In this document: positions 60,385 through 64,000 of the stretch, piece after piece
Layout: the number at the start of each line of letters is the position of its first letter
Numbering within the stretch: the first letter of the stretch is position 1
From: Escherichia phage dhabil
DNA length: 64,000 nucleotides
Sequence record: MN850621.1
Reading direction: 5' to 3' (one strand)
The notes under the pieces: model-generated
Seen by the model: the letters and a program-made list of their open reading frames with translations, nothing else
Database searches by the model: none
Told to the model about the DNA's origin: nothing
Made by a program: the position numbers and the translations under genes

Positions 60385-60409
60385 ATTATATCACTTCACA
60401 GCTATAGCA
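60385..60409 (-). promoter_or_regulatory. Candidate MotA-dependent middle promoter for uvsX
   Basis: Minus strand TGCTATA (MotA-box-like) - 12 nt - TATAAT, about 55 nt upstream of the uvsX ATG. Confidence 0.35.
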
Positions 60410-60541
60410 TTACTTAATTCCTCGGTTGATAGCCTTATCGACTATCTTCCGAACTTCTCGTTTCTCGAGCCAGCATAATACTAGAAGGGCTCCGAAAGAG
60501 AATAATAACAAACCTATAAAAAGCAATAGAGGACCTAGCAT
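60410..60541 (-). CDS. Small membrane peptide (43 aa), not in ORF track
   Basis: MLGPLLLFIGLLLFSFGALLVLCWLEKREVRKIVDKAINRGIK; ATG overlaps the stop of the 297-aa ORF. Confidence 0.35.
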   Translation of the reverse strand: MLGPLLLFIGLLLFSFGALLVLCWLEKREVRKIVDKAINRGIK

Positions 60542-61428
60542 ACTACGTCCTCATAACGTGGCATTTCGTACTCAGAATGAATATGGGCACCGAAATAAAT
60601 GAATTCAGCCAGACCAGGATGGAATACTAAACCTGGGTTCTCATGATAAATGATATGTGGTCTTGATTTCAGAATCTGATAATATTCAACCTTACTCGGT
60701 TTGAATTTAACAATCTCTACATCAGGACGATAGTCTTCACGCTTAAATGAATCATTCGGGTCGGTGATATAAAGACGAGCACCTTCAGCGGCAGCTTGGT
60801 CTACAACTCTTTCGAATTGATAGCACTTATCCGAAATACGGAATGGATGGAAAATACCATCAATTTTAATAGGCGCTAGACCATCAGAGTAACGCTCAAT
60901 TACTGCAGGATTAATTACCTTTTGGTCTACAAAAATCTTATCAGAGGATGCACCTCGTGACACCAGGACGTCTTTCTGGCATTGATTCAGGACTGTAGTA
61001 TAAAGTGAACGTTCAACTGAAGCCACATCAATATCAATGAACTCATCGATATAATAACGAGGAACTTCAGGGTCCATTGTGATATTAAAGTTGAATTGTA
61101 CAGTATGAGCACCATCATAACCGGTGATATCGGTTACCAGTCCTGAGCAATCATAGTATTCGATTAGTGAATCGACTACAAACTCATTTTCGGACCAGAA
61201 ATGTTTACGGGTTTCATAAGCATTTTCTTTATACCAAAGTGGTACGAAATTCAGTTCTGGGAATAATTCAATGCATTCTTTGATATCGCTCGAATTTCTA
61301 GGATAAGCCAGATAATCACCTGGACGAGCACGATTTAAATGGAGTTGAAAATTACCGTCCTTAAGGACGGCATATTCACCTGTTTCGTAACTACGCATAC
61401 TGAAAATAGGAACGATAAACAAACTCAT
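60535..61428 (-). CDS. Hypothetical protein (297 aa) in the beta-glucosyltransferase slot
   Basis: ORF between uvsX and gene 42 where T4 carries bgt; no similarity to T4 beta-gt recognisable by eye. Confidence 0.55.
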   Translation of the reverse strand: MSLFIVPIFSMRSYETGEYAVLKDGNFQLHLNRARPGDYLAYPRNSSDIKECIELFPELNFVPLWYKENAYETRKHFWSENEFVVDSLIEYYDCSGLVTDITGYDGAHTVQFNFNITMDPEVPRYYIDEFIDIDVASVERSLYTTVLNQCQKDVLVSRGASSDKIFVDQKVINPAVIERYSDGLAPIKIDGIFHPFRISDKCYQFERVVDQAAAEGARLYITDPNDSFKREDYRPDVEIVKFKPSKVEYYQILKSRPHIIYHENPGLVFHPGLAEFIYFGAHIHSEYEMPRYEDVVC

Positions 61429-62123
61429 TTCAGGAAACCTCGGACGTAGTCAAAATCACGTTCAAACACGTGTGCACTTACCATGGTGTGGGAATACGTA
61501 CCTAAACCGACACCACACTGTTCGGCAATAAATGCCATCAGTTTACCCTGCAGATAGAAATCCAGCTGCATAACAACAGCGCAGTTTTGTGAACGCATAT
61601 GGGTATGTGCGTACAAACGACCATCACGAATATAATACGTTACTGAATCGGTGCACGGGTATTCTAAGGATTCGTCAGAATCAAGGAGGGCTTGGTCTTG
61701 TTCTTGGAGAATCTGGAACACAACTCTTCGCGAGTTAGCCTTTTCTTTAAGCTCTTTAAGTAGGGCTGGGAGCTGGGCCACAATTCGAGGTCCATAGAAA
61801 GTGTTGAAGTTTGCAGGCAATACGTCACTTTTCGGCTTATCAATGAACTTAGCAACATTAGGGTATTCCTTAAATGCTTCGGCAGCGTCAGTACCACCAG
61901 AAATCATAAATTTCCAAAAGGATTCGGCATATTCATAACTGATACGATTGATACGTGGGTCGGTGAATTTATAGGTGCTGGCATCCAGTACTTCTACTGA
62001 AGCAGAACCAATTTCATAACAGCGTCCGATACGAGAATCAACTGCAAACTGTGGAGCTTCCAGGATTTCTTCGTTCATTTGTTTAAATGCGTTTTCAAAA
62101 CTAACAGCGGTAATGTGTTTCAT
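61425..62123 (-). CDS. 42: Deoxynucleotide hydroxymethylase (gene 42 family, thymidylate-synthase fold)
   Basis: 232 aa; block EYPCTDSVTYYIRDGRLYAHTHMRSQNCAVVMQLDF aligns with the T4 gp42 active-site region FMCTNTVQYLIRD...NMRSNDVVFGF; otherwise diverged. Confidence 0.7.
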   Translation of the reverse strand: MKHITAVSFENAFKQMNEEILEAPQFAVDSRIGRCYEIGSASVEVLDASTYKFTDPRINRISYEYAESFWKFMISGGTDAAEAFKEYPNVAKFIDKPKSDVLPANFNTFYGPRIVAQLPALLKELKEKANSRRVVFQILQEQDQALLDSDESLEYPCTDSVTYYIRDGRLYAHTHMRSQNCAVVMQLDFYLQGKLMAFIAEQCGVGLGTYSHTMVSAHVFERDFDYVRGFLK

Positions 62124-62656
62124 TTATTCACCTTATTTTCAATATATTCGTTCAGACGTTTTAATTCTACCATATCAACATTAAGCAAATTATTATGACC
62201 GTCATGATTTAAGATTTTAAACACGTTTTCAAAACATGTTTCGTATTGCTGGATAGTTAGGTTGAACTCATCTTTGGTTAATTTAATAAGGTCATCTTCG
62301 AAGTCTTCGTCTAATGGGTTGCGAGTTAAAATAACCTCGATAACGTTAAATTCAGATTTAAACCCTTTCCAATCTTCCAGTTCTACATAAGGGTCCATTT
62401 CACCACGAAGGAATCCTGAGTAAACAATATTACTTGGATAACCACGGTCAAGGATATAAACGAAATTAGGGTCTAAAAACTTATACAGAGTTTCAACTAA
62501 AGCCTTATCGTTATCAGTTCCTAATGAAATACACTTGCCATTAATCTTTTTAGGAAAATCAATAAGGCGGTATTTCTTATTGGATAACAGATTTTTAATT
62601 AAAGTGGACTTCCCGGAATTATCCGGGCCGTCTATAACAATGATTTTTGGATTCAT
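62120..62656 (-). CDS. P-loop nucleoside/nucleotide kinase-like protein
   Basis: 178 aa; Walker A GPDNSGKST and a DRG(Y) element reminiscent of thymidylate-kinase-family enzymes. Confidence 0.6.
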   Translation of the reverse strand: MNPKIIVIDGPDNSGKSTLIKNLLSNKKYRLIDFPKKINGKCISLGTDNDKALVETLYKFLDPNFVYILDRGYPSNIVYSGFLRGEMDPYVELEDWKGFKSEFNVIEVILTRNPLDEDFEDDLIKLTKDEFNLTIQQYETCFENVFKILNHDGHNNLLNVDMVELKRLNEYIENKVNK

Positions 62657-63051
62657 GGATGATAGGCCTTATAACTATCAAGAGTTCCTTCACGAACCAA
62701 TTCTTTAAAGTGGTCAGGACGGATTGCTCGGTCATCGATGATAAAAGTATAACTCGGCTTGTGTGTAAGCAAATTGTGATATTTCAATCCAATTTTTTCA
62801 AGATTCTTAACCAATGCAGGAACTACTTCAACCAAGATTCGACCTGGGCCACATGAAGTCATGCCACGGGCAGTGAACAATGTAATCTCGTACCCTTCAT
62901 CATAAAGCTTATTAATCATGGACACCATTTCGGTGTCCGGTTTAAAGTTCTCATAATCACGGTCATGGTTCCAAATCGTGATTGTGTTATCGATATCAAA
63001 ACATAAATGTGGCTTATTTTCTACTCGATGCGACATTAAATTTTCTTCCAT
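62653..63051 (-). CDS. HAD-superfamily phosphatase-like protein
   Basis: 132 aa; HAD motif I FDIDNTIT, TAR element and IDDR (motif IV-like). Confidence 0.55.
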   Translation of the reverse strand: MEENLMSHRVENKPHLCFDIDNTITIWNHDRDYENFKPDTEMVSMINKLYDEGYEITLFTARGMTSCGPGRILVEVVPALVKNLEKIGLKYHNLLTHKPSYTFIIDDRAIRPDHFKELVREGTLDSYKAYHP

Positions 63052-63950
63052 TGTTTGTGGAGTTCAGTAGAACCTGTAGGTTTATATTTTACACCAGTTT
63101 CCTGGTCAAGCAAAACCCACTTATCAGGACAACGAGTAATAATTTGAGCCGTAATAGGGTCACGAACTTCATCGACAAATTCACCCGTAATAAGCTTACG
63201 CTTACGAGGATGCCGCTTCAGCAGCACACTCAGTTGATACAAACCATTATAATAAGCACCCAGAGCTTTCAGAGGGTTATTCTTAAAGTAACCTGCCAGA
63301 GCCATCCAAATAACGGCAATCCAGAGCTTGTGCTTAAATGTGCACATAGGGATATCGTCTAAAGGCATAACCTTTTCGATATCAACGAATACACGAGTTC
63401 CGTTACGAGTTAATCCACCCCATAGAGGGTCTGAGTTAAATTTATCATAGCCATCGATAGAATAAAGCACCTTAGCTTCATCATAAATCGCAGGGCCTTT
63501 AGAACTATTACCGAAATAACCGCGTGGGTCGATGATTTTAATATCACCTTCGTCCGACAGCATAATATTACTGTAGTGCGGGTCGCCATGAATAAGTTGG
63601 TATGGTTCTTTATGTTCAGACAGAATTTCTAGTGCATGGCGGAGAAGTTTTTCAGGGTCGCCTACTTTGAAATCGTTAACGTGGGTAATGCCTTGTGGAG
63701 CAAAGCCTTCAATCAATCCAGCAATAGAAGCATTACGAATAAGGACCTTGTCCAATACTTCTTTCTTAACATCAGAATACCATTGTTCATCGGACGGATT
63801 ATCGATAGTTCCACCAAATGAACGTAATGCACTAATGACCTTATAAACCATGAGGACTTTAGTTTCTTTGGACATAAAGCGGTAGGCATCTGCCATGGTA
63901 CGACCAAAGATACGTTCCATTTTAATGAATTCGCCTGGAGAAAAGTCCAC
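63036..63950 (-). CDS. APH/choline-kinase-fold phosphotransferase
   Basis: 304 aa; catalytic loop HGDPHYSN (Brenner motif) and IDPRG metal-binding element. Confidence 0.6.
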   Translation of the reverse strand: MDFSPGEFIKMERIFGRTMADAYRFMSKETKVLMVYKVISALRSFGGTIDNPSDEQWYSDVKKEVLDKVLIRNASIAGLIEGFAPQGITHVNDFKVGDPEKLLRHALEILSEHKEPYQLIHGDPHYSNIMLSDEGDIKIIDPRGYFGNSSKGPAIYDEAKVLYSIDGYDKFNSDPLWGGLTRNGTRVFVDIEKVMPLDDIPMCTFKHKLWIAVIWMALAGYFKNNPLKALGAYYNGLYQLSVLLKRHPRKRKLITGEFVDEVRDPITAQIITRCPDKWVLLDQETGVKYKPTGSTELHKQWKKI

Positions 63951-64000
63951 AATACTAGGAACAAATTCAGAATCAATAGAATTATACCAATTGATTTCTT

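Follow-up and report, generated by a model that had tools for sequence, protein, structure and literature searches.

The closest described relative of the locus considered here is the gp45-gp55 cluster of phage RB69, whose pathway blocks host nucleases by making UDP-arabinose and attaching arabinose to 5-hydroxycytosine in phage DNA. JS98 and RB69 were noted to carry a "gene 42" without glucosyltransferases (Petrov et al. 2010), RB69 genes were proposed for UDP-arabinose synthesis with a homolog of the fused protein cited from the Dhakavirus IME08 (Thomas et al. 2018, PMC6024577), and a 2021 survey of Tevenvirinae listed gp45, gp51, and gp52 as associated proteins. RB69 gp48 and DLP3 gp80 convert deoxycytidine monophosphate (dCMP) to 5-hydroxy-dCMP with the oxygen coming from O2 and a flavin bound to the enzyme, and the dhakaviruses are named among the lineages that carry the syntenic cluster (Lee et al. 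2026, PMC13326640). Here we describe the corresponding genes of Escherichia phage dhabil in a stretch of 64,000 nucleotides (nt) of record MN850621.1, referred to below as the window. An original prediction, made from the letters alone, had placed a kinase-phosphatase-kinase operon at the right-hand end of this window, next to a supposed gene 42 hydroxymethylase. From orthology to the RB69 set, we think it quite likely that these genes belong to a five-gene block that replaces Dhakavirus cytosine with arabinosylated 5-hydroxycytosine by way of a UDP-arabinose donor. The window genes are a rediscovery of a known pathway in reduced form, in a further genus; its prediction dates from 2018 and its biochemistry from 2025-2026, so this is no new system.

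Window positions 60400-64000 are 99.9% identical to Escherichia phage dhaeg (MN850609, Dhakavirus, JS98-like) and 92-99% identical to further dhakaviruses. On a single strand, the dhaeg order is 43 - imm - hypothetical gene - dhaeg_214 (557 amino acids, aa) - dhaeg_215 (127 aa) - dhaeg_216 (178 aa) - dhaeg_217 (labeled "putative thymidylate synthase" in the record) - dhaeg_218 (297 aa) - uvsX. Overlaps of 1, 4, 4, and 4 nt join the genes for the 557-aa protein, a HAD phosphatase, a P-loop kinase, a thymidylate synthase (TS) homolog, and the 297-aa protein. The three overlapping, co-oriented minus-strand open reading frames (ORFs) on which the original prediction was built, the outermost running from 63036 to the window edge, are present with every motif it quoted, and all three have strong homologs and are therefore genes rather than chance ORFs. 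Pairwise comparison with RB69 finds an ortholog for each gene of the block (gp53:52, gp51, gp45, gp48, and gp47:46) in the same slot. The equivalent slot in T4 reads 43 - imm.1 - imm - 42 - beta-gt - segA - uvsX, in agreement with the T4 layout given in the original prediction (gene 42 flanked by beta-gt and imm/43). Relative to T4, the AfhE-like, AfhF-like, and P-loop genes are additional, there being none of them between T4 42 and imm.

In the pathway that we propose, the region singled out in the window would be the 5′ half of a five-gene, translationally coupled block. Lacking an isomerase, the phage would probably draw its D-arabinose-5-phosphate from the host pathway to 3-deoxy-D-manno-octulosonic acid (KDO), through KdsD/GutQ; E. 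coli always makes arabinose-5-phosphate for KDO by these enzymes. Within the 557-aa protein, the APH-like domain at the C-terminus would phosphorylate this sugar at C1, the HAD phosphatase would take off the 5-phosphate, and the N-terminal nucleotidyltransferase domain of the 557-aa protein would join the resulting arabinose-1-phosphate and UTP to yield UDP-arabinofuranose. On the nucleotide side, the TS homolog would hydroxylate dCMP to 5-hydroxy-dCMP, which the P-loop kinase may phosphorylate toward the triphosphate for replication, and the 297-aa transferase would add arabinose to the 5-hydroxyl. This scheme draws on orthology, domain architecture, motifs, the kinase fold, gene coupling, co-occurrence, and the absence of an isomerase and a second transferase, all of them observed; the enzyme activities are predicted for Dhakavirus by transfer from the published RB69 and HY126 orthologs.

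The gene downstream of the trio, which had been taken for the T4 gene 42 hydroxymethylase, is by its sequence an ortholog of the 5-hydroxy-dCMP synthases. It is 80% identical to RB69 gp48 (E = 5e-146) versus 25% identical to T4 gp42 (E = 1e-10), and it matches PDB entries 9iqu and 9iqc at E ~2e-125 versus 1.5e-4 for 1b49 (gp42). These two entries and 9iqw, for which only molecule names are given, are probably structures of the HY126 enzymes described by He et al. 2026, with 9iqw as the presumed AfhF entry. Cys157, Asn180, and Asp188 align to T4 Cys148, Asp171, and Asp179, with RSQN in the Dhakavirus protein versus RSND in T4. T4 Cys148 and Asp179 correspond to Cys146 and Asn177 of E. coli ThyA, which therefore puts Asn180 at E. 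coli position 169, and D169N is reported in every verified 5-hydroxy-dCMP synthase (PMC13326640). Among the readable close homologs from two scans of viral contigs described below, 46 of 46 have Asn at the Asn180 position and Asp at the 188 position, the latter being the predicted source of cytosine specificity. The RB69 and HY126 synthase homologs are described as flavin-bound. Assignment of the downstream gene as a T4-type gene 42 was rejected on the difference in identity together with the D169N signature.

The type of synthase also bears on the idea that the P-loop or the APH-like kinase phosphorylates the 5-hydroxymethyl group of 5-hydroxymethylcytosine (hmC) or 5-hydroxymethyluracil in DNA, in the manner of 5-HMUDK, to create a leaving group. 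The P-loop kinase does lie directly upstream of a TS-family enzyme, and kinase/TS pairings exist in thymidine-hypermodifying phages. A synthase of the 5-hydroxy type would, however, make no hydroxymethyl group and so provide no substrate for such a kinase. The best structural matches of the P-loop protein are mononucleotide kinases, the APH-like domain shares its chain with a sugar-1-phosphate nucleotidyltransferase, and the chemistry of RB69 and DLP3 yields an ether-linked arabinose rather than a displaced phosphate (PMC13326640). Judged from the cluster, where the sole TS-family enzyme found is of the 5-hydroxy type, and not from a direct comparison with 5-HMUDK, the locus does not fit hypermodification of that type, and leaving-group chemistry strikes us as exceedingly improbable at this locus.

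The original prediction of an activated non-glucose donor fared better, being supported by a fusion of APH and nucleotidyltransferase domains together with the HAD protein, which are 41-62% identical to the RB69 AfhE/AfhF equivalents. The ORF read as an APH-fold kinase does contain such a domain, but it is just the C-terminal 320 aa (residues 238-557) of the 557-aa nucleotidyltransferase-kinase encoded by dhaeg_214 (1674 nt), and it aligns to positions 242-559 of the 559-position phrog_4098 profile (E = 4e-151). The GTG listed at 63950 is not a real start; the frame is open through 64000, and the true start lies about 709 nt past the window. Suspected components beyond 64000 thus amount to the N-terminal NTP_transferase domain of this protein (about 215 aa, window-equivalent 64001-64709), with no additional pathway genes in the dhaeg record upstream of the 557-aa gene. 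In Pfam, residues 3-100 of the full-length protein match NTP_transferase with 33.9 bits (cutoff 21.2), residues 346-417 match APH with 26.0 bits (cutoff 23.2), and the windowed part alone matches APH at 26.4 bits against the same cutoff of 23.2. By BLASTP, RB69 gp53 matches the N-terminal domain (44%, E = 3e-55) and gp52 the C-terminal domain (41%, E = 3e-78), the two matches being collinear; RB69 gp53/52, like gp47/46, is a single gene broken by sequencing errors. The nucleotidyltransferase motif GxGxRLxPxT...PK appears as GAGLGSRLYPITNEIPK in the alignment to RB69 gp53, the N-terminal domain, beyond the window, carries GAGLGSRLYPIT...PK, and the HGDPHYSN catalytic loop and the metal-binding Asp of IIDPRG in the kinase domain are common to the 557-aa protein and RB69. 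The N-terminal domain also weakly resembles the MurU, GlmU, RmlA, and HddC models and LicC in PDB entry 1jyk. A nucleotidyltransferase followed by an APH-fold kinase in one chain is the AfhE architecture, and the sequence identifies the 557-aa protein as the ortholog of RB69 gp53:52. Predicted structures for the RB69 orthologs of the APH-like domain and the transferase are reported in PMC13326640, where RB69 gp52:53 and gp51 are the equivalents of HY126 AfhE and AfhF. In the account that this paper gives of He et al. 2026, AfhE first converts arabinofuranose-5-phosphate to the 1,5-bisphosphate, AfhF, a Mg-dependent HAD phosphatase, strips the 5-phosphate from arabinose-1,5-bisphosphate, and the nucleotidyltransferase domain of HY126 AfhE then combines arabinose-1-phosphate with UTP into UDP-arabinofuranose.

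The HAD protein is a predicted arabinose-1,5-bisphosphate 5-phosphatase orthologous to RB69 gp51, with which it shares 62% identity (E = 1e-63). It matches PDB entry 9iqw over residues 3-127 (E = 3.6e-54) and 1xpj more distantly (E = 9e-12), and HAD motifs I-IV are present as DxDxT (FDIDNTIT), TAR, HKP, and IIDDR. The most probable start codon is the ATG at 63036, which gives 127 aa and overlaps the upstream stop as TAATG; the dhaeg annotation and the N-terminus of RB69 gp51 agree with this start rather than with 63051. The closest NCBIfam model is TIGR01689 (capsule biosynthesis phosphatase), under its cutoff, and there is a weak match to the polynucleotide kinase phosphatase family. In public records of dhakaviruses, this protein is mislabeled as a "phosphoheptose isomerase" or a "capsule biosynthesis protein," probably because the predicted steps parallel those of ADP-heptose synthesis by HldE and GmhB.

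Two scans of viral contigs, one seeded with the P-loop kinase and the other with the TS homolog, show which of these genes travel together. In the kinase-seeded scan, the Asn-type TS, the transferase, AfhF, and AfhE were all present in 23 of 25 Straboviridae loci, the exceptions being one 4.4-kb fragment and Morganella phage MP1, which has the kinase alone. In the TS-seeded scan, the kinase, transferase, AfhF, and AfhE accompanied the synthase at every Straboviridae Asn-type locus (27/27). An isomerase lay within 10 kb in 17 of these 27, and the ten without a nearby isomerase kept the rest. A second group of ten loci, whose TS is 54-60% identical, resembles RL38JI, for which the kinase gp214, the transferase gp215, the synthase gp216, and the sugars galactose and glucose have been described (PMC13326640); the group agrees with the RL38JI arrangement given there. 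These loci, from a myovirus as judged from a tail sheath gene in one contig (L080), have TS and transferase in 10/10 and the kinase in 8/10, the remaining two contigs ending just past the transferase. AfhE, AfhF, and the isomerase were found in none of the ten, including two with full 10-kb flanks. Pairing of AfhE with AfhF is accordingly strict (together in 27/27 Straboviridae loci, both missing in the ten RL38JI-like loci), and a nucleotide module of synthase, transferase, and kinase is separable from a sugar-donor module of AfhE and AfhF with or without the isomerase. Of the donor set of three genes put forward originally, the AfhE-like and HAD genes stand; the P-loop kinase, which has the Tmk fold and is present in loci without sugar genes, probably does not.

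These distributions also weigh on a reading of the trio as ordinary salvage, in which the P-loop protein is a plain kinase for deoxythymidine monophosphate (dTMP) or dCMP, the HAD protein is a 5′(3′)-deoxyribonucleotidase, and neither has a role in DNA modification. PHROG and RefSeq label the P-loop protein "thymidylate kinase," MP1 has kept the kinase alone, the HAD protein has its weak polynucleotide kinase phosphatase match, and a Foldseek search with RB69 gp51 lists a putative deoxyribonucleotidase (PMC13326640). However, the HAD gene accompanies AfhE in all 27 Straboviridae Asn-type loci and occurs in none of the ten RL38JI-like loci, where AfhE is missing. Its closest solved relative is 9iqw, and the HY126 equivalent is reported to be the arabinose-bisphosphate phosphatase (PMC13326640). 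T4, whose DNA carries plain glucosyl-hmC, lacks all three genes between 42 and imm; conservation of the trio in such a phage was what the original prediction had named as evidence for salvage, and the strict AfhE-AfhF pairing counts against it as well. We consider salvage very unlikely, and a role of the block in cytosine arabinosylation the better account.

Two further groups of loci in the scans stand apart from these patterns or add to them. Metagenomic contigs L090 and L091 carry a distant Asn-type TS (46-50%) adjoining weak matches to the transferase (25-27%), the isomerase (33-36%), and AfhE (25-30%), with no Tmk-like kinase or AfhF detectable on either contig; they may represent a more divergent version of the pathway. 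In RL38JI-like contigs (L080 9478-9972 (+), and the group L076-L084, L093), a Flavodoxin_2 gene resembling flavin mononucleotide-dependent reductases lies directly upstream of the Asn-type TS, in keeping with a possible role in providing reduced flavin to the hydroxylation in those loci.

The P-loop kinase is 38% identical to RB69 gp45 (E = 4e-36), and its best structural matches are mononucleotide (thymidylate) kinases. It has the Tmk fold, complete with P-loop and a motif of the DR(Y/F/H) type. Scores against curated dTMP kinase models fall below their cutoffs (Pfam Thymidylate_kin 15.7 bits, cutoff 27; NCBIfam DTMP_kinase 18.5, cutoff 83), and just the P-loop is aligned; we therefore describe the protein as having a Tmk-like fold and not as a bona fide dTMP kinase. 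A homolog search returned nine matches, none annotated. Because it travels with the synthase and transferase in loci without sugar genes, the kinase probably stands outside the sugar pathway and is assigned to the nucleotide branch, where its predicted substrate would be a modified dCMP, either 5-hydroxy-dCMP or a derivative. In Morganella phage vB_MmoM_MP1 (L026 9995-10525), a Tmk-like kinase 38% identical to that of the window lies between DNA polymerase and uvsX, and the TS homolog, transferase, AfhE, and AfhF were not found within 10 kb of it. Either this lone kinase is what is left of a modification cluster that has since disappeared, or it points to a wider role for the enzyme.

The derivative in question could be one that already carries its sugar. 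In this alternative, the transferase would act on free 5-hydroxy-dCMP, and the kinase would persist with the synthase and first transferase because the bulky glycosyl-5-hydroxy-dCMP, which gp1 cannot handle, needs a kinase of its own; glycosylation would be pre-replicative. The TS-transferase-kinase triad is conserved in both Straboviridae and RL38JI-like loci, mostly with the genes in this sequence, the first acceptor was not distinguished in published experiments, and single transferases were inactive on 5-hydroxycytosine DNA in vitro (PMC13326640). On the other hand, the later arabosylation steps were demonstrated on DNA (PMC13326640), and beta-gt and gene 42 are likewise adjacent in T4, yet there the transferase acts on DNA. 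Among the T-even systems, moreover, every phage DNA glycosylation known to us is post-replicative. We hold the alternative to be doubtful; if it were true, replication would draw on a dCTP that already bears its sugar, built in by the phage polymerase, unlike the post-replicative T-even mechanism. Phosphorylation of 5-hydroxy-dCMP itself remains our preferred reading, and the separation of the two modules points to the substrate of the Tmk-like kinase as a question worth pursuing.

The last gene of the block encodes a 297-aa protein that occupies the position of the T4 beta-glucosyltransferase and is 70% identical to RB69 gp47 (E = 3e-96) and 65% identical to gp46 (E = 3e-49). Matches in Pfam and NCBIfam were not found, and its identity as a transferase is accordingly taken from RB69 orthology, the role of Ara-GT1 having been proposed for RB69 gp47:46 (PMC13326640). 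A tblastn search of the entire dhaeg genome at E<=0.1 returned no match to RB69 gp55 (arabinose-5-phosphate isomerase), gp50 (U32-like), gp003 (second arabinosyltransferase), or T4 beta-gt. The alpha-gt slot of dhaeg is also empty, homologs of a-gt.4, a-gt.3, and a-gt.2 being followed directly by gene 47 (dhaeg 127368-129210; L006 45369-47211), which is consistent with a non-glucose modification. With five genes, one transferase, and no isomerase, the Dhakavirus set is the smallest complete gene set in this survey. Because the genome has one transferase, we predict mono-arabinosyl 5-hydroxycytosine as the product; Thanatos, with a single transferase, is reported to make a mono-arabosylated product (PMC13326640).

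Of 23 Straboviridae clusters, 11 (L013-L019, L021, L023, L024, L028) carry a U32-peptidase-like gp50 that is 83-99% identical to that of RB69, whereas Dhakavirus lacks it. In rRNA and tRNA, oxygen-independent 5-hydroxylation of C and U depends on the U32-family proteins RlhA and TrhP, and gp50 might provide an alternative route to 5-hydroxycytosine.

The missing isomerase invites the thought that the same machinery activates another host pentose phosphate, such as ribose-5-phosphate or a xylose-derived one. The AfhE-like protein and that of RB69 share just 41-44% identity, and a Thanatos cluster protein is reported to be a UDP-xylose pyrophosphorylase, both of which fit such a sugar. Still, supply of arabinose-5-phosphate by KdsD/GutQ in E. 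coli makes a phage isomerase dispensable, the ten Straboviridae loci without a nearby isomerase keep the remainder of the set, and two of the enzymes closely resemble their RB69 counterparts, the phosphatase at 62% identity and the transferase at 65-70%. Arabinose is likelier on account of the host supply and these two close relatives, and we rate a different pentose as improbable.

Several points weigh against the arabinosylation pathway as we have drawn it. The assignment is built on orthologs that are 38-80% identical, the biochemistry of AfhE and AfhF reaches us at second hand through PMC13326640, and no chemical analysis of Dhakavirus or JS98 DNA was found in the literature searched. The AfhE-like protein, at its modest identity to that of RB69 and with the isomerase missing, could handle a different sugar, and UDP-xylose pyrophosphorylase activity has been reported for the Thanatos cluster protein TH1_063 (Thanatos paper). 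The dhaeg genome also encodes a T4-type gp1 deoxynucleoside monophosphate kinase, itself a candidate for the kinase step, and MP1 retains the P-loop kinase without the remaining cluster nearby. Finally, a first arabosylation on the mononucleotide could not be distinguished from one on DNA in the published experiments (PMC13326640).

Comparison with known systems places the locus nearest to RB69, with which it shares the DNA polymerase-uvsX slot, the domain architecture, and the Asn signature of the synthase. It differs in lacking gp55, gp50, gp49, and gp003 genome-wide, in the place of the kinase gene (after the transferase in RB69, between phosphatase and synthase in Dhakavirus), and in the sugar kinase/nucleotidyltransferase and Tmk-like kinase, which are only 38-44% identical. 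With T4 gene 42 and the alpha- and beta-glucosyltransferases, the block has in common its position and a logic of TS-family dCMP modification, exclusion of dCTP by gp56, and glycosylation of the new hydroxyl, as well as the catalytic Cys and cytosine-specifying Asp of gp42. The differences from T4 are the 25% identity, Asn for Asp at E. coli position 169, a 5-hydroxy rather than a 5-hydroxymethyl product, the absence of alpha- and beta-gt homologs in Dhakavirus, and a donor that is predicted to be phage-made UDP-arabinose instead of host UDP-glucose. In the synthesis of ADP-heptose by GmhA, HldE, and GmhB, a kinase likewise acts at C1, a HAD enzyme removes the distal phosphate, and nucleotidylation follows, with kinase and nucleotidyltransferase fused; GmhA and the isomerase that some of the phages carry are both SIS-domain enzymes. 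The Dhakavirus kinase, however, has an APH/choline-kinase fold versus the ribokinase fold, the sugar would be a pentose rather than a heptose, and the HAD protein is nearest to TIGR01689 (below cutoff) and not to GmhB. The resemblance is best seen as analogy, not membership. AmgK-MurU (anomeric MurNAc kinase and MurNAc-1-P uridylyltransferase) and pairs of the LicA/LicC type, in which an APH-fold kinase works with a nucleotidyltransferase, use the same two folds in series, but matches to these families are far below their cutoffs, the Dhakavirus fusion is ordered nucleotidyltransferase-kinase, and a phosphatase step is needed here, since the kinase substrate is already phosphorylated.

Its small size makes the Dhakavirus set a convenient minimal system for reconstitution. 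The predicted dependence on a host KDO precursor and the predicted mono-arabosylated base would affect how sensitive the phage is to type IV restriction and to other defenses relevant to phage therapy. Public Dhakavirus annotations of the cluster genes are inconsistent and misleading, and they can be corrected: in GenBank and RefSeq, the synthase goes under the names "thymidylate synthase" and "deoxycytidylate 5-hydroxymethyltransferase," the P-loop protein is a "thymidylate kinase," the HAD protein bears the labels given above, and the 557-aa enzyme and the transferase are each a "hypothetical protein."

Table 1. Coordinates of the block genes and an adjoining small ORF in the window
Feature	Position	Strand	Motifs and orthology
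AfhE-like bifunctional enzyme, C-terminal 320 aa (predicted)	63036..64000	-	HGDPHYSN, IIDPRG; RB69 gp53:52 orthology
AfhF-like HAD phosphatase, 127 aa (predicted)	62653..63036	-	FDIDNTIT, TAR, HKP, IIDDR; RB69 gp51 orthology
Thymidylate-kinase-fold P-loop kinase, 178 aa	62120..62656	-	GPDNSGKST, FPK, DRGYxSN, FEDDLI; RB69 gp45 orthology
Predicted 5-hydroxy-dCMP synthase, TS family	61425..62123	-	Cys157, Asn180, Asp188; RB69 gp48 orthology
First DNA arabinosyltransferase ortholog ("Ara-GT1"), 297 aa	60535..61428	-	RB69 gp47:46 orthology; phrog_3891
43-aa hydrophobic ORF	60410..60541	-	ATG overlaps transferase stop codon

Upstream of the 557-aa gene, the dhaeg record has, in order, a 60-nt gap, the hypothetical gene, imm, and DNA polymerase. 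The gap contains TAGAAA-16-TATAAT and a GAGGA ribosome-binding site; promoter-like sites were no commoner in the scan than in shuffled sequence, and the TATAAT site is therefore just positionally plausible. Base composition across the block gave no signal of foreign DNA. At the other end, the small hydrophobic ORF that follows the transferase gene begins MLGPLLLFIGLLLFSFGALLVLCWLEKREVRK... and is without annotation in the dhaeg record; it may or may not be part of the pathway. It is kept at 93-98% identity in four of six Dhakavirus loci and is missing from the other two, and a degenerate, stop-interrupted trace of it lies 3′ of beta-gt in T4 (L003 4267-4350).

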